Made by a program: the position numbers and the translations under genes
Notes under the pieces: model-generated
Told to the model about the DNA's origin: nothing
Database searches by the model: none
What the model saw: only the letters and a program-made list of their open reading frames with translations
In this document: positions 2,579 to 40,293 of the stretch, piece by piece
How the letters are laid out: the number at the start of each line of letters is the position of its first letter
How positions within the stretch are numbered: the first letter of the stretch is position 1
Assembly (NCBI GenBank): GCA_022614805.1
Contig: JAKEHY010000024.1
Coordinates: forward strand, 1,844 to 65,843
DNA: 64,000 nt
Origin: Candidatus Zixiibacteriota bacterium
Lineage (GTDB): Bacteria; Zixibacteria; MSB-5A5; DSPP01
Direction of reading: 5' to 3'

Positions 2579-3364
2579 ATGCGGAAACTTATCCTAAGCG
2601 CACCGGGGTTGGCTATCCTCATTTTTTTGACTCTTGCCGGCTGCAACTCCCGCGGCGGTGGCAGCACCGGCCCGGGGGACAACGCCCCCTTCAAAATACA
2701 CGGTATTTTCGCGCGGGATGCCAATTTGACCAACGACAGGGATAAGGCCTATTTTGAATTAACCCGCAACGACACCCTTTTCAATCTGGCTGCCTTTACG
2801 CTTGATACTTTCAAGGTGGATACGACCATTTTTACCACCTATTACCGCCAATCCCCGCCCAACTTTCTGCGTCCGGCACAGAACCATGTCATACATTTAG
2901 TCTATTCCCCAAACACCCTAGATCTCACGACCTCACTTTTTATGCCGGACTCTTTCTTTATTTCTTCAATTACAGGGATTAATCCGGATCATACAAATCC
3001 AGGGGGCACGCAGCAGGCCAACGTAAACTGGACTGCTTCGGCTAACGCGACAGGCTACATTGTGGCTGTCGTTCATGACAGCGCCGCACTATCGAGTCAA
3101 ATCGACACGAGTTTCTTTCCCGATTTTGCCACTTCCACAAGCATACCGCTGGCTGCTTACCGGGATGCGAACAATCAATTGAGAACCGGTCTTTATAGAA
3201 TCTACTTGGTTGCCTTCCGTGGCGGACTTTTGCCTTTTTCCGGACAATCTTTTCCCCTGCCTCCCAATTATTCCGTTGCGGACACGAATTACTCTTTGAC
3301 CGTTGCAGGGAGGATAGTTTCAGCGTTTGTAGCCAAGTACGACACAATCCGTGTTCTTCCGTAA
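2579..3364 (+). CDS. hypothetical lipoprotein
   Basis: 261 aa. Signal peptide with lipobox LTLAGC followed by Gly-rich linker. No recognisable catalytic motifs. Confidence 0.5.
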   Translation: MRKLILSAPGLAILIFLTLAGCNSRGGGSTGPGDNAPFKIHGIFARDANLTNDRDKAYFELTRNDTLFNLAAFTLDTFKVDTTIFTTYYRQSPPNFLRPAQNHVIHLVYSPNTLDLTTSLFMPDSFFISSITGINPDHTNPGGTQQANVNWTASANATGYIVAVVHDSAALSSQIDTSFFPDFATSTSIPLAAYRDANNQLRTGLYRIYLVAFRGGLLPFSGQSFPLPPNYSVADTNYSLTVAGRIVSAFVAKYDTIRVLP

Positions 3365-3517: not shown

Positions 3518-5641
3518 ATGGCGACGGCAAAGCAGACAATCGGGAAAACAGTGGCCGGGTGGCCGGCGGAGAAATTGTTGGAAATCTATCGGCTGATGTA
3601 TCTGTCCCGCCGGCTGGACGACAAGGAAATCACCCTAAAAAAGCAGAACAAAATATTTTTCCAAATCTCCGGCGCCGGGCACGAAGCGATTCTGGTCGCC
3701 GCCGGGCTGGCCTTGCGCCCCGGCTATGACTGGTTTTATCCCTACTACCGCGACCGGGGGCTGGTTCTTGCGCTCGGAATGACCCCCACCGAGGTCTTGA
3801 TGGAGGCCACCGGCTCCGCCGCCGACCCGAACTCCGGCGGACGGCAGATGCCCTGCCACTGGGGACATAAAAAGCTGAACATCGTCAACCAATCCTCGCC
3901 CACCGGAACGCAGTTTCTGCAGGCGGTCGGCTGCGCCAAAGCCACCCGCTACTACGCCGAAGTTTTGGGAGCGGAAGATAGGCCCTCCAATTTCCATCCG
4001 GACGAAATCACCTATGTTTCCGGCGGGGACGGCGCCACTTCCGAAGGGGAATTCTGGGAGGCGCTCAACTATGCCTGCCTTTACCGGTTGCCGGTGCTGT
4101 TTCTAATCGAGGACAACGACTATGCCATCTCCGTCCCGAAAGAGTTTCAGACGGCCGGCGGCTCGATTTCCAAGTTAGTCGCCAACTTCCCCTCCCTTTT
4201 CATCAAAGAAGTGGACGGCTGCGACCCATTGAAAAGCTACGAGGCGATTAAGGAGGCGGAGCGCCATCTCCGCGAAGGGCGCGGCCCGGCTCTGGTGCAC
4301 GCCCACGTCATCCGCCCTTATTCCCATTCGCTGTCGGACGTGCAGGCGGACTACCGCGCCCCCAAGGAAATTCAGGAGGAAAACGCCCGCGACCCGATTT
4401 TGACCTTCGCCAACTTTTTGGTCAAAGAAAAAGTGCTGACCGAAGCGGAGCTGGCCCAGCTGAAAGAGGAAGTGGATGCCGAAATCGACCAGGCGGCGGA
4501 TGAGGCGCTTGCCTCCCCCCAACCGGCGCCGGAAACGGCCGAGCTGTATGTCTATTCTCCCGATATCGACCCGACTTCAAAAGAGTTCGAATCGGAGCCG
4601 AAATTCAAAGAGGGAACGCAGCCGCTGACGCTGGTCGCCGCCATCAACACCTGCCTGAAAGAGGAGATGGCCCGCAACAAAAAAGTTCTGATTTACGGCG
4701 AAGACGTGGCCGACTGCTCCCGTGCTGAAAGTCTTAACCTCGTCCCCGGCAAGGGAGGGGTTTTCAAAGTAACCATCGGGCTGCAAAAAGCGTTCGGCGA
4801 AGGGCGGGCCTTCAATTCTCCCCTGGCGGAAGCCACCATCGTCGGCACGGCCGTGGGAATGGCCACGCGCGGGCTGAAGCCGGTCGTTGAAATTCAATTC
4901 TTCGACTACATCTGGCCGGCGATGATGCAGATGGTTAACGAATGGTCGAAAATGCGCTGGCGCTCCAACAACGCCAATTCCTCCCCGGCCATCATCCGGG
5001 TTCCTTTCGGCGGCTATTTGCACGGCGGCTCGGTGTACCATTCCCAATCGGGCGAGTCGATTTTCGCCCACATCCCCGGCATCCGCATCCTTTTTCCGTC
5101 CAATGCGCTCGATGCCAAGGGGCTTTTGCGCACCGCCATCCGCACGGACGACCCGGTTCTGTTTTTGGAGCACAAGCATCTCTACCGACAGCCCTACAAC
5201 CGCACCCCTGACCCCGGACCGGATTTCACCATCCCTTTCGGCCGCGCCCGAATCACCAAGCCGGGGAAAAACGTCACTTTGATTACCTACGGCGCTTTGG
5301 TTTACCGCTCCGAGCAGGCGGCGGCGGAAGCGCTGGAGCGCGGCATCGAAGTGGAGGTCATCGATTTGCGCACGATTATGCCCTACGACTGGGAAGCCAT
5401 CGCTGCCTCGGTGAAAAAGACCGGCAAGGTGGTGGTGGCGCACGAGGATGTTTTGACCTGCGGCTTTGGCGCCGAAATCGCCGCCCGGATTGCGCAAGAG
5501 CTTTTCGACTATCTGGACGCCCCTGTCACCCGCGTCGGCGCGCTGGACACCCCCGTCGGCTACGCCCCCTTCTTGGAAGAAGCGATTTTGCCCAGCCCAA
5601 AGAAGGTGCTGAAGGCGATTTTGGACGTGGCGGAATATTAA
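3518..5641 (+). CDS. 2-oxoacid dehydrogenase E1 component, fused alpha/beta subunits (TPP-dependent)
   Basis: 707 aa. N-terminal half resembles E1 alpha (TPP-binding [15 protein letters not shown]). C-terminal half resembles E1 beta / transketolase pyrimidine-binding plus C-terminal domain. No E2/E3 genes adjacent. Confidence 0.8.
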
Positions 5642-5643
5642 AG

Positions 5644-6264
5644 ATGGCTACTGAAGAAGATCAAAAACTAATTGAAGGGATTCTCTCCGCAAAGGAGCCG
5701 CTCAACAAAGGCATTTGTTGGGAAGAATGGGATGAACGTGAAAATGCGATTGACTCTTTGGAACAAGTTGCAGAATATCTAGATGAAAAATATGTGAATC
5801 GTCGGTTAAAACGCGTCTCAATTGCGCTTGATCATGCTTTTTATTCATTCACTATTTGTGCTATAAAGGGGACAAACTACGAACAAGTTCTTAAAGATAA
5901 AGGTAGCGATTTAATAGGTTTTTGGACGTCTTTAGAGCGGCTCGAAGCTCAGCCGGGAAGATTCGTGTTTAGTGTGCCTGTAGTTATTACCGATGAGCAA
6001 AAGAAATATATAGGAATTATTCATAATTTCGCGAACGATTTCAAACATTTTGTCCCGATGAGTTATCTCATCAAGTTAGAAAAGTTTCCAGAAGCAGTTA
6101 ACAGCGTCATTCAGGTAATCAAGTCAATTTATAGCTCCGGAGACTTTCCCGTTTATCATCTTTCAACTGAACAAAAAGTAAGGGTTCAATCGATTTTTGA
6201 TAAAATAGCCTCTTCTACACTCAGATGGAAAGAGCAAATTGGGGCAGTTTCGAAACTTGCCTAA
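5644..6264 (+). CDS. hypothetical protein, first gene of low-GC islet
   Basis: 206 aa ORF with AT-rich codon usage unlike its neighbours. ATG lies 2 nt after the E1 stop. No domain recognised by eye. Confidence 0.5.
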   Translation: MATEEDQKLIEGILSAKEPLNKGICWEEWDERENAIDSLEQVAEYLDEKYVNRRLKRVSIALDHAFYSFTICAIKGTNYEQVLKDKGSDLIGFWTSLERLEAQPGRFVFSVPVVITDEQKKYIGIIHNFANDFKHFVPMSYLIKLEKFPEAVNSVIQVIKSIYSSGDFPVYHLSTEQKVRVQSIFDKIASSTLRWKEQIGAVSKLA

Positions 6265-6302
6265 GCCACTATAGCGCAAAACATAAACAGCGAGATGATC
6301 TA

Positions 6303-7094
6303 ATGAGAAGACCAGAATACCAAAATTTTGGGCTTTCACCGAACCGTTCAGAGGAGATTCGGAGAACGGTATCACTTTTTGTAGGAAAGAAGGAAACTTT
6401 AATCGGTATACAAAAATCTCTCAAATATATATTGCTGACACTACTTTTAGTTTATGCGGCTTCTTTTCTATGGAACACTTCGGATAATTTCGTTAGTCGC
6501 ACGAAAATTTTTATAGCGTTGGCGATTGTACCGTTTGTAGTTTATTCGGCTCTTCATTTTATTCTCCCGCGCCAACTTGAAAAGTATAACCCTGAGAATG
6601 TTCCCGGCTATAAAGAACTGAAAGCTTTTGAAGTCGAAGTTAAGAAGTATGACCAAGAGCAAAGAAGATATGAAGAGGAGCAAAGGAGACTCGAATTAGA
6701 AAAAAGAGAGTTAGCGGAGTTAAAAAGAAAACGGTTTTGGCTCGAGCAAGATGGTTATACCTTCGAAAAAAACATTGCTAAAGTTTTCGAACGGTTAGGG
6801 CATAAGGTTCGACTTACCAAAAGTTCTGGAGATGAGGGAGTTGATATTTTTGTAGATGATGACAAAATAGTCCAATGCAAAGCAACCAGGTCACAAATTG
6901 CACCTGCAATTGTAAGAGATTTGTACGGAACTATGCGTGACAAAAAGGCAAAAAAGGGTATAATAGTGTCGACCGGTGGATTTTCCTCCGGGTGCTATGG
7001 ATTTGTTGCTAGACATAAAAACATTCAACTGTGGGATTTGAATAAACTGCTTGAAGTAGCCGGAAAATTGGGCGTAGGATATAAAGATAATTAA
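6303..7094 (+). CDS. membrane-anchored Mrr-type restriction endonuclease domain (PD-(D/E)xK) protein
   Basis: About 263 aa from the ATG at 6303 (ORF track gives an alternative start at 6225). Two predicted TM helices, then a charged coiled-coil (EQRRYEEEQRRLELEKRELAELKRKR). C-terminal Mrr_cat-like core: FEKNIAKVFERLGHKV..SSGDEGVDIFV..IVQCKATRSQIAPAIVRDLYGTM..GIIVSTGGFSSG. Low GC. Confidence 0.7.
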   Translation: MRRPEYQNFGLSPNRSEEIRRTVSLFVGKKETLIGIQKSLKYILLTLLLVYAASFLWNTSDNFVSRTKIFIALAIVPFVVYSALHFILPRQLEKYNPENVPGYKELKAFEVEVKKYDQEQRRYEEEQRRLELEKRELAELKRKRFWLEQDGYTFEKNIAKVFERLGHKVRLTKSSGDEGVDIFVDDDKIVQCKATRSQIAPAIVRDLYGTMRDKKAKKGIIVSTGGFSSGCYGFVARHKNIQLWDLNKLLEVAGKLGVGYKDN

Positions 7095-7210
7095 GACATA
7101 TCATTAGATTTCGAAGAGCTAGGCATACCTCGTTCCTACCTTTCTCCCTATCCCATAGCTGCAAAATACCCCTTGCCGTTTGAGCGGCTTCCGATTTCTT
7201 TGAAGGGACT

Positions 7211-9703
7211 ATGCAAGCCGTAATAATGGCCGGGGGGTTTGGCACCCGCTTGCGGCCGCTCACCGCCAACCGCCCCAAGCCGATGGTGCCGGTGGGCGGG
7301 GTGCCCTTGATGGAACAGGTCGTCCGGCTTTTGAAAAAGCATGGCTTTACCGAGGCCGTGGCTTTGGTTTTCTATCAGGCGGAGCAAATCAAGGAATATT
7401 TCAAGGACGGCAAGCGCTTTGGGCTGAAAATGACCTACCAACTGGCGGAAGCGGACTACGGCACGGCCGGGAGCGTCAAAAACGCTGCGGCGTTAATCAA
7501 AGGAGACTTTCTGGTCATCTCCGCCGACGTTTTGACCGACATCGATTTGACGGCGGCGGTGAAGTTTCACCGCGAAAAGGAGGCATCCGCCACGATTGTG
7601 CTCTCCCGGCAGGAAAACCCGCTCTCCTACGGCATCGTTCTGACCGATGAGGCGGGGAAAATCACCCGCTTTCTGGAAAAACCCTCCTGGGGGCAGGTTT
7701 TTTCCGACACCGTGAACACCGGCATTTACGTTTTGGACCGCGAGGTGTTGGAAAAAATTCCGGACCAGCAGGAATTCGACTTCAGCCAGAATCTCTTCCC
7801 AAAAATGCTGACCGAAAAAGCGCCCCTCTTCGGCTATGTAGCCAAAGGATATTGGAAGGACGTCGGCAACATTGACGAGTACTTCAAAGCGCATAGTGAC
7901 CTGTTGGCTGGCAAAGTTGAGATAGAAATGGCGGGAGATAAATCTAAAAAAGGAAATCTCTGGATTGGGGAGGGGGTGAAACTGGATGAAAGTGCCCAAA
8001 CCGAGGGGACGGTCTGCATCGGCGCCAAAAGCAAAATCGGCCCGAAGGTTTTTTTGAAAAACTCGATTCTCTCCCCCGGTGTGGCAATTGAAGATGAAGC
8101 CCGAATTGAGAACTCGATAATCTGGGAAAAAGCCGAAATCGGCAAAAAATCGAAAATCACCGGCGCCATCGTCGGGGCGGAGGTAAAAGTGGGGGAAGAA
8201 GCCGAAGTGGAGCAGGGGGTTTTGATTTCGGATGAAGCCCAAATCGGCGCCGGCGCGCGTATTTCCCCCAACGTCAAAATCTGGCCCGGAAAAAAAGTGG
8301 AGGAAAAGGCGGTGGTCACCGCCAATCTGGTCTGGGGAGAAAAGTGGAACCGGGAGCTTTTCACCGATTCCAAGGTGACCGGGCTGGCGAATCTGGAAAT
8401 CACACCGGAATTCGTGGTCAAGCTGGGGGCCGCTTTCGGCGCATTGTTGGGAAAAAATTCCACCGTCATCACCAGCCGGGACGCTTCGCCGGTTTCGCGG
8501 ATGATTAACCGCGCCGGGATATGCGGGTTGCTCTCCGCCGGGGCCAACGTGGAGGATTTGCGCCAGATGCCGATTCCCATCGTCCGCTTTCTGCTCAAAG
8601 CGGGCAAGGAGCGGGGGGGAATTTTCGTCCGCCACGCCCTCGCCGATTTGAAATCGACTGACATCGTTTTTTTCGACCAGGGGGGAATGGATTTGCCGGC
8701 TGCCAAAGTGAAATCGGTGGAGCGGCTCTTTTTCAGGGAGGATTTTCCCCGGGCGGAATGGAGCGAGGTGGGGCATCTCGATTTTCCCGTTCGGGTTCTG
8801 GAGGCCTACCGGCAGGAATTTTTGTCGCATTTGGATTTGGAGGCGATAAAAAAAGCCCGCTTCAAGGTAGTCATCGACTACTCCTATGGCTCCGGCTCGG
8901 AGGTCTTTCCCTCTCTTTTCGGCAGCTTGGGAATTGAAACCGTCTCGCTCAATTCCTACCCGGACGTCACCAAATTTTCGCCAACCGAGGAGGCCAAGGC
9001 CAAGGCCTTGGCCCAGCTTTCCTCCATCGTCCGCTCGGTGGAGGCCGATTTAGGGCTTTTGGTTGACCCCGGCGCGGAACGAATCGACCTGGTTGACTCG
9101 AACGGAGGGCAAATTGACCCGGACCGGTTGCTTTTGATTGTTACCGAAGTTTTTCTGGCGAGCAAGAAAGCTCCAAAAATTGCCGTGCCGGTGGTCGCCT
9201 CGATGGAAGCCGAGGAAATCGCCCAAAAGCATAGCGCGGATGTCGTCCGGGTCGGAAATGACCACCTTTCGATGATGAAAGCGGCACGTGAGAATTCGGT
9301 CGGGCTGGTGGGGGGCACCAAGGGAGGGTTCATTTTTCCCGAATTTCAGGTCGGGGCGGATTCGATGTTCGCCGCCGCCAAAATTCTGGAGCTTCTGGCC
9401 AAAAGGGGCAAAAGCCTCGCTGAACTGGCCCGGCAAATCGACCACTATCATCTTCTTTTCGACCGCGTTCCCTGTGCCTGGGGTAAAAAGGGGAAAGTGA
9501 TGCGGAAATTGATGAGTCACTCGGAAAAATCGGAACGCCAGCTTATCGACGGTGTGCGGATTTTGGGTGACGGCTTTTGGATTCTGGGCGCTCCCGACCG
9601 GCGGGAGGCCTATTTTAACCTTTTTGTGGAGGCGCGGGAGGAAAAGAAGGCCAAAAAATTGCTGGATGAATACAAAAAATTAGTCGAGGAATGGCAGAAA
9701 TGA
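7211..9703 (+). CDS. bifunctional sugar-1-phosphate nucleotidyltransferase / phosphomannomutase-like protein
   Basis: 830 aa. N-terminal NTP-transferase signature [20 protein letters not shown], central left-handed beta-helix hexapeptide repeats, and a C-terminal 400 aa alpha/beta region resembling PGM/PMM domains. The canonical TASHNP active-site motif is not evident. Confidence 0.65.
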
Positions 9704-11552: not shown

Positions 11553-12701
11553 ATGAGCAAATTCTTGAAGAAGCTTTCAGCCGCTTTATTCTTTGGCATT
11601 TTGGCAGCGCCTCCCTCCGCTTTTTGCCAGGTCGATACCGCTTGGGTGCGCTACTACAACGGGCCGGGCGACAAATCGGATGAAATGAGAGGGCTCGCTG
11701 TGGATGATAGCGGAAATGTAATTATTACCGGTTACAGCGGGACTGGATCGCCGTTCGGAGATCTCGTCACGATTAAGTACGATCGGAACGGCAACCAACT
11801 TTGGCTTCAAAATTACAATAGTGCAGTAAACACCGGGGATTATCCTGCTCTTTTTGCCATTGATAAAAAAGGGAATGTGTATGTAACGGGCGGATCATCG
11901 GCAGGAAATGATTGCTTGACGATCAAGTACGATTCCAACGGAAATCAGGTTTGGACAGCCCGCTATAACGGGCCCATAAATGGGGTGGACATTGGCTTAG
12001 GGGTCACGGTTGACGAAAGCGGGAATGTCTATGTTGCCGGGATCAGTCAGGGAGCCGTAAGAAATTGTTACTTCTACTCCGGCTTATACTATGATTTCGT
12101 GACACTAAAATACGACTCCAATGGAAACCAGCTTTGGGCTACCCGGTATGCTCCTCCGGGGGGGGATGATTATTGGAATCGCGCACATTTAATTGCAGTT
12201 GATTCATTTGGCAACATTTACGTCGGCGGATATAGTGAACATTGCCAAGGACCAACAGAATGGATAACCATCAAGTACGATTCGACCGGCGCGCAACTTT
12301 GGGTGCGATCCGATATCAAACAACCATGGAGTACTGCTGCCGGTGCTCCCGTCGACCTAAAATTGGATGCCAGCGGATATGTTTACCTGACTGGAGGAAG
12401 TCAGCAGGATAGCACAGCATATCGCAACTATACAACCGTTAAATATGACTTCCAAGGTAATATACTGTGGGCCGCCCGTTTTAACGGAAGCGCCAACAGC
12501 GATGATTATGCCACCGCCATGGCATTGGATTCACAGAACAATATTTACGTCACCGGCTTTAGTTATAGCGGAGCGGCAAACCGTGATGATATAGTTACCA
12601 TCAAATACGATTCAGACGGAAATGAGCTTTGGGCACGGAGTTACAACGGGCCGGGGAGTGGATTGGATAGAGGTTTTGATATATTCCTGGATACCGCGTG
12701 A
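11553..12701 (+). CDS. secreted SBBP beta-propeller-repeat protein, N-terminal part ending at an in-frame TGA
   Basis: Signal peptide, then at least 8 repeats of the pattern D-x-x-G-N-(I/V)-Y-V-x-G ... T-(I/L)-K-Y-D-S-N-G-N-Q-L-W (SBBP-like). Terminates at TGA 12699-12701. Confidence 0.7.
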   Translation: MSKFLKKLSAALFFGILAAPPSAFCQVDTAWVRYYNGPGDKSDEMRGLAVDDSGNVIITGYSGTGSPFGDLVTIKYDRNGNQLWLQNYNSAVNTGDYPALFAIDKKGNVYVTGGSSAGNDCLTIKYDSNGNQVWTARYNGPINGVDIGLGVTVDESGNVYVAGISQGAVRNCYFYSGLYYDFVTLKYDSNGNQLWATRYAPPGGDDYWNRAHLIAVDSFGNIYVGGYSEHCQGPTEWITIKYDSTGAQLWVRSDIKQPWSTAAGAPVDLKLDASGYVYLTGGSQQDSTAYRNYTTVKYDFQGNILWAARFNGSANSDDYATAMALDSQNNIYVTGFSYSGAANRDDIVTIKYDSDGNELWARSYNGPGSGLDRGFDIFLDTA

Positions 12702-40216: not shown

Positions 40217-40293
40217 GGGGTCGTAGTTCAGTTGGTTAGAACGCCTGCCTGTCACGCAGGAGGTCGCGAGTTCGAGTCTCGTCGGCCCCGCCA
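40217..40293 (+). tRNA. tRNA-Asp (anticodon GUC)
   Basis: 77 nt. GGGGTCGTAGTTCAGTTGGTTAGAACGCCTGCCTGTCACGCAGGAGGTCGCGAGTTCGAGTCTCGTCGGCCCCGCCA. D-loop AGTTGGTTAGAAC, anticodon loop CTGTCAC, T-loop GTTCGAGTC, encoded CCA. Confidence 0.92.

Follow-up and report, generated by a model that had tools for sequence, protein, structure and literature searches.

Does a pair of foreign-looking genes between housekeeping genes of a Zixibacteria metagenome-assembled genome make up a two-gene defence system, or does one of the two act alone while the other can be exchanged? The pair lies in a window of 64,000 nucleotides (the whole stretch of DNA analysed here, from the roughly 70-kb contig JAKEHY010000024.1 of assembly GCA_022614805.1), where gene 1 and gene 2, both on the + strand, form an islet at positions 5644-7094. 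An initial annotation made from the letters alone had read the islet as a horizontally acquired, compact defence or abortive-infection/toxin module, in which a protein without recognisable domain partners a membrane-tethered Mrr nuclease. We give an even chance to a different reading, namely that the islet is a defence-type cassette in which gene 2 is an autonomous, membrane-sequestered nuclease and the gene upstream of it is swappable.

The two islet genes are compositionally foreign. The islet has a guanine-plus-cytosine (GC) content of 38.5% against 55.5% in the rest of the window and is the minimum among all 1451-bp windows (mean 0.551, standard deviation (SD) 0.040), at about -4.2 SD. In a 200-bp profile, GC fell from 0.635 (5400-5599) to 0.405 (5600-5799) and was back to 0.57 at 7100-7299, which bears out the sharp drop at the gene 1 ATG and the recovery after the second stop that had been judged by eye. 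The claim that codon usage is unlike that of the neighbours held as well. GC at third codon positions (GC3) is 0.33 in both genes versus 0.665±0.089 (minimum 0.48) in the 38 other long open reading frames (ORFs), and the isoleucine codon preference is reversed relative to the other ORFs of the window, with ATT/(ATT+ATC) at 0.87-0.90 in the islet genes and mostly 0.2-0.6 elsewhere (three ORFs lie at 0.80-0.85). The genes are 38 nt apart. On the left they are flanked by a gene encoding an E1_dh/Transket_pyr/Transketolase_C fusion (E1 dehydrogenase, hereafter E1) and on the right by one encoding an NTP_transferase-PGM/PMM fusion (hereafter NTP-transferase). NCBI names the gene 1 product 'hypothetical protein L0196_07225' and the gene 2 product 'restriction endonuclease', 263 aa. 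Low GC relative to the surroundings was also found for both protein families elsewhere, at 7/7 and 10/11 loci.

The features of gene 2 (Table 1) support a predicted membrane-anchored nuclease of the Mrr-type PD-(D/E)xK class. Its start is almost certainly the ATG at 6303. The start at 6225 used in the initial annotation is an over-extension, ruled out by the length that NCBI calls and by the N-termini of homologues, which align at 6303; the full-length homologues all start M-[KR]-[KR]-P-E-Y-x-[DN]-F-G-L-S, and P4 and G10 are at least 90% conserved (alignment A2; residue numbers refer to the 263-aa form). The Pfam match to Mrr_cat has an E-value of 4.1e-25 and 88.6 bits against a cut-off of 21, and it spans positions 4-113 of the 115 in the profile. 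Alignment of 12 family members revealed that D177, G179, D181, Q191, C192, and K193 are invariant, so that the catalytic residues proposed at the outset are intact; we take D…QxK (GxD…QxK) to be the Mrr-type version of the PD-(D/E)xK active site. The gene has a ratio of nonsynonymous to synonymous divergence (dN/dS) of 0.09-0.18.

The remainder of the protein is more variable. The transmembrane (TM) region is its most divergent part, with 29-49% identity to orthologues versus 72-75% in the nuclease domain. By inspection, hydrophobic residues (F,Y,Y,L,L) form a clean stripe at one heptad position of the charged helix that follows; the second core position is partly polar, and a coiled-coil is plausible here. 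Of the architecture described in the initial annotation, the TM helices, the charged helix, and the nuclease domain were therefore recovered, while the coiled-coil was not formally predicted. A 21-nt tandem duplication at 6648-6689 (TATGACCAAGAGCAAAGAAGA / TATGAAGAGGAGCAAAGGAGA) codes for YDQEQRR / YEEEQRR, exactly one heptad, and the homologues vary greatly in linker length; from these sequences, the linker appears to change in length by heptad duplication.

This build recurs outside the locus. The N-terminal motif is present in 20/40 gene 2 homologues, TM segments precede the nuclease in about 26 of the 40, and the full N-motif/TM/Mrr architecture is seen in about half of them. A 284-aa protein of the same build is encoded on the Butyrivibrio plasmid pCY186, beside RelB/YoeB, a restriction endonuclease, and a type I restriction-modification (R-M) system. 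Neighbours of other relatives include PheRS, a PIN/DUF2281 pair, a DUF4258 gene, an integrase with HTH_17, and an Eco57I-type methylase with DUF5677. On the contig that carries relative P0005, the Mrr gene is separated by 35 nt from the end of the gene upstream of it, which codes for at least 198 aa. The distant relatives have no recurring upstream gene and are often solitary. In the PADLOC library, the best match of gene 2 is PDC-S02, with three models at E 2.4e-17, 2.7e-13, and 3e-11, the best of which is covered only over profile positions 170-305 of 334, the nuclease half. The distant relatives P0009 and P0012 match the same PDC-S02 models, and gene 2 also matches the nuclease ends of the ZorD (E 1e-8) and mREase_IV models. 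Among plasmids, tblastn gave gene 2 matches in the Mrr domain only and none for gene 1, and searches of PDB sequences with the proteins and profiles of both genes returned nothing relevant.

To address when the islet arrived, we compared the window with the corresponding loci of two sister lineages, one from hot-spring-type metagenomes (L001-L003 and L096) and one represented by GCA_040960215.1 (L006). Both have a low-GC gene pair in the identical slot after the E1 stop. Across the lineages, the slot has a GC of 0.37-0.41 and a GC3 of 0.31-0.39, with a flank GC3 of 0.68-0.76, and in the sister lineage that has both genes the gap between gene 1 and gene 2 is the same as in the window (37-38 nt). 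The flanking genes (Lon, E1, NTP-transferase, and CstA) have a protein identity of 92-96%, a dN of 0.02-0.06, and a dS of 0.5-0.8. For gene 2, protein identity between lineages is 54-63% and dN is 0.23-0.34; for gene 1, which could be compared only between the window and L001, the values are 84% identity, dN 0.10, and dS 1.0. The protein divergence of the islet is thus about 10-fold that of the flanks, with both genes under purifying selection (dN/dS, or ω, of 0.09-0.18). In L006, the gene 1 slot holds an unrelated 262-aa protein whose gene overlaps gene 2 by 4 nt; the possibility that it is a diverged HEPN protein was dismissed on sequence and profile comparisons (BLASTP E 5.9; hhalign probability 0.1%). 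The three loci become homologous again within gene 2 and remain so past its stop, across a GC-rich hairpin, and into the leader of the NTP-transferase gene.

Occupation of the slot therefore predates the divergence of the three lineages sampled; the islet did not arrive recently, and the upstream gene has been replaced at least once since that divergence. The initial annotation had found it unclear how the islet was inserted. Its observation that the borders bear no integrase, tRNA, or flanking direct repeat was confirmed by our scans: the tRNAs of the window lie only at 40217 and 62076, no significant flanking repeats border the islet, and the stretch from Lon to CstA contains no integrase ORF. 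The islet has none of these three hallmarks of a classical genomic island. As to the question of insertion itself, since the slot was already occupied before divergence (flank dS 0.5-0.8), insertion scars are not expected. Among the E1 relatives in the matches listed, which are 59-66% identical and come mostly from Acidobacteriota and Gemmatimonadota, neither islet gene was present at the 80 loci of other phyla. The GC3 of the islet stays near 0.33 despite a large apparent synonymous divergence (dS 1.0-3.1 by Nei-Gojobori in AT-skewed genes, where values above 1 are unreliable and were not used quantitatively). Because dS values above 1 are not trusted, we favour neither selection for a high AT content nor the replacement of alleles from an AT-rich pool as the cause.

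Gene 1 presented a different picture. No match was found for it in Pfam, PADLOC, NCBIfam, or PHROGs, and a word-indexed search returned 3 proteins, suggesting an orphan. That status was rejected when an exhaustive profile search retrieved 809 cluster representatives at E<=1e-3, 366 of them at E<=1e-10. An AlphaFold2 model built on a 50-sequence alignment reached a predicted local distance difference test score (pLDDT) of 90.2, and its high-probability Foldseek matches were HEPN, Csm6, and HEPN-MNT proteins, with weak E-values; as modelled, gene 1 has an all-alpha HEPN fold. The absence of a recognisable domain thus stands for the sequence libraries but not at the level of the fold. When 50 family members were compared with the HEPN models of Pfam, NCBIfam, and PADLOC, nothing scored above threshold, and there was one sub-threshold match to HEPN_Cthe2314.

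Conservation in an alignment of 224 members is concentrated in a few positions. N34 (213/224), D37 (210/224), and Y67 (221/224) are nearly invariant, as are W55 (211/224), K56 (221/224), and W57 (213/224), and so are R130 (207/224), N131 (205/224), H135 (209/224), and P138 (215/224). The last four make up an R-N-x-F-x-H-F-x-P block, a HEPN-type Rx4H motif (RNxxxH), which from the type of motif would sit at the HEPN active-site position; ENAIDSLE, KWKW, and Y67 are further near-invariant motifs of the family's own. Among the 224, only the gene 1 of the window and its 84%-identical orthologue have A130 with N131 and H135 kept, and these two also lack W55 and W57. The HEPN catalytic motif R-x4-6-H is therefore not found in gene 1. 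Fold and descent place gene 1 among the HEPN proteins, but because the catalytic arginine is missing it is unlikely to be a canonical ribonuclease (RNase), and a non-canonical, likely non-RNase role is the simplest reading of its sequence. Purifying selection acts on it (ω 0.10), and inactive HEPN domains have previously been discussed as binders or regulators (PMC3710099).

The relatives of gene 1 keep mixed company. Members of the family are fused to a complete AbiD (PADLOC 2e-83; Pfam Abi_2 1.7e-57) and to a Schlafen AlbA_2 domain (SLFN_AlbA_2). Their neighbours are heterogeneous: an N6/N4 methylase with LexA, a PHD-like antitoxin, and an Eco57I-type R-M system near an integrase were seen, the remote homologue P0003 follows DUF2283 and an MqsA-like zinc-ribbon gene, and a gene for a small TM protein together with one for a DnaJ-domain protein lies beside a family member at three loci. 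A constant upstream partner for the HEPN family was considered and rejected, as the upstream genes of L092 and L094 are unrelated and the neighbours are mixed.

Are gene 1 and gene 2 then a pair? Beyond the window, the two were seen together in a single sister lineage (L001-L003, L096), and there only at the orthologous locus. Of 28 independent metagenomic loci of the gene 1 HEPN family, none has a gene resembling gene 2 within 4 kb, and L004, L092, L094, and L095 likewise have none. Because the co-occurrence is confined to the locus of one lineage, the claim of a conserved pair or system is badly weakened and we do not retain it. The evidence favours an autonomous gene 2 with a variable upstream position. 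What survives of the proposed compact defence module is the defence and mobile flavour of the relatives of both families, including the fusions; a conserved two-gene system is not supported. An obligate two-component system, in which the arginine-less HEPN protein would sense infection or restrain a membrane-anchored Mrr effector, appears rather unlikely for the same reasons, together with the unrelated slot gene of L006 and the want of a recurring upstream gene among the distant relatives of gene 2. In its favour are the same-strand layout with its short gap, the single compositional block, co-inheritance in two lineages, and the close upstream genes of both L006 and the P0005 contig. It would also fit that only the Mrr-linked HEPN copies retain N131 and H135 but lack R130, W55, and W57, as expected of a non-catalytic shift under purifying selection, and HEPN modules restrained by or embedded in R-M systems have precedents in PrrC and others (PMC3710099). 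The small same-strand two-gene layout could also be that of a toxin-antitoxin (TA) or addiction module, with the Mrr toxin neutralised by the HEPN-like protein or by its membrane anchor and the module persisting by post-segregational killing. The DUF2283 and MqsA-like genes before P0003, the PHD-like antitoxin beside another family member, and the retention of the cassette in a housekeeping context in three lineages point that way. However, HEPN TA systems use the HEPN protein as the toxin with an MNT partner, whereas here there is no MNT and the catalytic arginine is lost. Moreover, the relatives of gene 2 are commonly solitary, so a cognate antitoxin is not required, and a chromosomal slot between essential-type genes persists without addiction. 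We regard an addiction module as very unlikely.

The history and the setting of the slot invite two further explanations. AT-rich alleles from an outside pool might have arrived recently or repeatedly, recombining via the conserved flanks of a hotspot. This would explain why GC3 is 0.31-0.39 in all three lineages with no amelioration toward about 0.7, why the apparent dS of the islet exceeds that of the flanks, and why the first gene of the slot was swapped in L006; the L001 lineage also has a breakpoint and a truncated NTP-transferase gene directly downstream. Yet gene 2, the stop-proximal region, and the hairpin are homologous in all three lineages, which argues for one allele lineage and not three unrelated arrivals. 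The Nei-Gojobori dS is unreliable above 1 in these AT-skewed genes, a nearby lipoprotein gene reaches 1.6-1.9 without a foreign GC, and no mobility genes or repeats were found. We therefore hold recent or repeated acquisition to be possible but doubtful. A non-defence function, with a membrane nuclease in DNA uptake or in envelope- or nucleoid-linked repair that is co-transcribed with E1, would suit the housekeeping neighbours, the retention of the cassette in three lineages, and the fact that gene 1 abuts E1 with no promoter-like site before it. It fits poorly with a protein divergence about 10-fold that of the flanks, a foreign composition, a replaceable upstream gene, and a patchy distribution, with relatives in mobile, R-M, or TA contexts and absence from the 80 E1 loci of other phyla among the matches listed. 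We consider it highly improbable.

We thus return to the defence-type cassette with an autonomous gene 2. We hypothesize that the cassette occupies a fixed slot between the E1 and NTP-transferase genes, where gene 2 would be the constant, self-sufficient single-gene module. Its predicted layout, a cytoplasmic N-motif, two TM helices, a charged heptad helix, and a cytoplasmic Mrr-type deoxyribonuclease (DNase), would tether the nuclease at the inner membrane and keep it off the nucleoid, by analogy with the membrane-bound nuclease SNIPE. There it could cut DNA that reaches the membrane, for example from an injecting phage or by conjugation, with an Mrr-like preference for modified DNA as a possible additional or alternative specificity. 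The fast-evolving N-terminal and TM part may set target or partner specificity. Gene 1 would be an accessory of gene 2 (a sensor, regulator, or inhibitor) or an independent passenger. Since the lineages split, the slot has diverged about 10 times faster than its flanks at the protein level, with the upstream gene replaced at least once. Membrane sequestration as the mechanism of gene 2 is what we infer from this analogy.

Several points weigh against this reading. The PDC-S02 models (334-390 positions) are matched by gene 2 only over their C-terminal 130-140 positions, the TM topology comes from hydropathy and the coiled-coil from inspection of heptads, and the neighbourhood in the window consists of housekeeping genes with no defence island. 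Neither islet family was found in a viral collection, a weak negative because the scans lean on short motifs. When one PDC-S02 representative was tested in E. coli B, the candidates that gave protection from T7, T5, or T4 did not include it (bioRxiv 10.1101/2024.09.26.614923). From sequence, a defence role for the islet is plausible. Finally, the 38-nt spacing of gene 1 and gene 2 and the 4-nt overlap in L006 argue for some coupling, which sits poorly with a purely autonomous gene 2; from this tight arrangement of the upstream gene a functional link between gene 1 and gene 2 is conceivable, at somewhat less than an even chance.

Table 1 Features of the islet and its borders, in window positions
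Feature	Position	Strand	Basis or remark
Left border: E1 stop TAA (5639-5641) and 2 nt, followed by the gene 1 ATG at 5644	5639..5643	+	
Gene 1, 206 aa, HEPN-fold protein (modelled)	5644..6264	+	Divergent family copy lacking R130, W55, and W57
Degenerate HEPN motif A130-N-D-F-K-H135	6031..6048	+	Read from the sequence
Gene 2, 263 aa, membrane-anchored (predicted) Mrr-type nuclease	6303..7094	+	Conserved N-terminus, NCBI length, Mrr_cat
N-terminal motif P-E-Y-Q-N-F-G-L-S of gene 2, predicted cytoplasmic	6312..6338	+	Family pattern P-x3-5-[FY]-G-[LIM]-[ST]
Two predicted TM helices, aa 39-57 and 69-89, with a short loop between	6417..6569	+	Kyte-Doolittle 19-mer maxima 1.68 and 2.37
Charged alpha-helical linker, aa 105-146, 42 residues	6615..6740	+	60% K/R/E/D, heptad hydrophobic stripe
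Mrr_cat PD-(D/E)xK nuclease domain	6747..7055	+	Pfam PF04471
Catalytic-type residue D177		+	Invariant in 12 family members
Catalytic-type residue D181	6843-6845	+	Codon read from the sequence
Catalytic-type residue Q191	6873-6875	+	Codon read from the sequence
Catalytic-type residue K193	6879-6881	+	Codon read from the sequence
Right border: decayed remnant of the GC-rich hairpin that follows gene 2 in the sister lineages	7095..7150	+	Alignment A5

The borders also bear on how the islet is transcribed. Upstream of gene 1, a promoter-like site was looked for and none was found, and gene 1 is probably transcribed together with E1. On the other side, the hairpin after gene 2 has a fold energy of -23.4 kcal/mol in L001 (z -5.0) and -20.4 in L006 (z -3.7), but of only -6.7 in the window (z -0.5). 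The approximately 60 nt before the NTP-transferase ATG (7151-7210) are almost invariant in the three lineages despite the flank dS of 0.5-0.8; they are probably a conserved promoter or leader, and they mark the true right edge of the islet. The best sigma-70-like site of the region, GTGACA-16-TATAAT (a consensus match only, 11/12), lies inside gene 2 at 6937-6964 (+) and is oriented toward the NTP-transferase gene. As the hairpin after gene 2 is decayed in the window, read-through into the NTP-transferase gene is possible, and the AT-rich insert may supply or permit such transcription.

Other changes were observed around the slot. At the NTP-transferase start codon, L001 (9526-9705) and L006 (6917-7081) carry an inserted element rich in hairpins (about 155-170 bp). 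On either side of it stands one copy of a duplicated 10-bp sequence (ATGCAAGCCG / ATGCAGGCCG), and this duplication regenerates the start codon; in the window the same site, at 7211, is uninterrupted and the element is absent. From its sequence, it looks like a miniature inverted-repeat transposable element (MITE) or a repetitive extragenic palindrome (REP)-like element with a target-site duplication. In L001/L002 (9654-10417), the NTP-transferase gene is cut to a 73-aa remnant, which is followed by Gmad2 and two M16 peptidases, and upstream of the lipoprotein gene the context of the L001 lineage differs, with EVE/NucS_C, LexA-like, radical SAM, and UmuD/IMS genes. Gene content in this lineage thus changes on both sides, and rearrangement breakpoints directly adjoin the islet. 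The lipoprotein gene itself (2579-3364, just upstream of E1) encodes a predicted 261-aa lipoprotein with no Pfam match and a GC of 0.50. At about 61% identity between lineages versus 94-96% for its neighbours, it is a second fast-evolving gene here, with a dS of 1.6-1.9 that is similar to that of the islet and a GC that is not foreign.

Moderately low GC (0.48-0.49), far milder than that of the islet, occurs at two further places in the window. The segment 47417-52392 (-) codes for surface proteins sorted by the type IX secretion system (Por_Secre_tail, FlgD_ig, beta-helix, FG-GAP), and 11553-12701 (+) codes for an SBBP beta-propeller protein. Among the gene 1 family loci elsewhere, three independent ones (L103:367-1291, L107:3019-3937, and L108:1040-1964) have the HEPN gene directly after a conserved pair, whose products are a small membrane protein (about 90-99 aa) and a larger protein (about 220 aa) that carries a DnaJ (J) domain at its C-terminus. 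These may represent a separate three-gene module around the catalytically intact HEPN form.

Taken together, these results describe a plausible defence cassette, judged from its sequence, that is built from known domain classes. Both domain superfamilies are standard components of defence and the pair is restricted to one lineage, so the islet does not amount to a new type of system. The new elements are a sizeable HEPN family without a curated model in Pfam, NCBIfam, or PADLOC, a recurrent N-motif/2TM/helix/Mrr_cat architecture that is half-covered by one PADLOC candidate, and a slot in three lineages that displays cassette turnover without mobility genes. The HEPN family, with its RNxxxH motif and its AbiD and Schlafen-AlbA_2 fusions, is a sensible target for defence screens. 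The locus is also a natural experiment, with one slot, three lineages, and flanks that are 92-96% identical, useful for following the turnover of small cassettes: the nuclease domain is conserved while the anchor diverges, the upstream gene is swapped, and the low GC3 persists. If membrane sequestration is true, self/non-self discrimination by location, so far demonstrated for the GIY-YIG nuclease SNIPE only, would extend to Mrr/PD-(D/E)xK nucleases, which are very common, and part of the PDC-S02 candidate class would gain a testable mechanism. In its boldest form, which we judge unlikely, gene 2 would stand for a second class of membrane-sequestered 'entry-point' nucleases that arose independently, is of the PD-(D/E)xK type, and converges functionally on SNIPE; the upstream gene would be a swappable response adaptor, and the HEPN proteins would make up a previously unrecognised family of defence RNases.

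How does the islet compare with known systems? With the Mrr type IV restriction endonucleases, gene 2 shares a near-full-length Mrr_cat, the GxD…QxK residues, and the PADLOC mREase_IV matches. It differs from the E. coli-type Mrr in that the Mrr_N winged-helix is missing (no Mrr_N match at E up to 1), and its N-terminus instead consists of the peptide motif, the two predicted TM helices, and the charged helix. The single-gene logic denoted by 'S' and the nuclease half are shared with PDC-S02, but the N-terminal half appears to differ; PDC-S02 is a PADLOC candidate that is not validated, and its tested representative is unrelated to gene 2. Similarity to ZorD of Zorya, a system also built around membrane-anchored components, is limited to the common Mrr_cat fold, as gene 2 has no SNF2 helicase part and is not accompanied by ZorABC genes.

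Gene 1, as modelled, shares its fold with the HEPN superfamily (HEPN-MNT toxins, AbiD/Abi2, AbiV, and Csm6; Anantharaman et al. 2013, PMC3710099), but its family has the distinctive motifs described above, and the copy in the window lacks the arginine. The MNT partner of type II/VII HEPN-MNT TA systems was not found: the neighbours of gene 1 encode E1_dh and Mrr_cat, and neither gene 2 nor the slot genes gave a nucleotidyltransferase-type match.

The closest parallel in design is SNIPE (PD-λ-1), which combines a TM segment, DUF4041, and a GIY-YIG nuclease and cleaves phage DNA during injection; without its TM segment it is toxic via chromosome cleavage, and among its homologues the nuclease is conserved while the N-termini are highly variable, some with two TMs (Nature 2026, PMC13190303). 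Gene 2 is not homologous to SNIPE, with no DUF4041 Pfam match (E up to 1) and Mrr_cat in place of GIY-YIG. It resembles SNIPE in its predicted N-terminal membrane anchor, its elongated middle, and its C-terminal cytoplasmic DNase, and, as in the SNIPE homologues, its nuclease is conserved while its N-terminal region diverges fast. By this analogy, gene 2 may work like SNIPE, though it is not a SNIPE.

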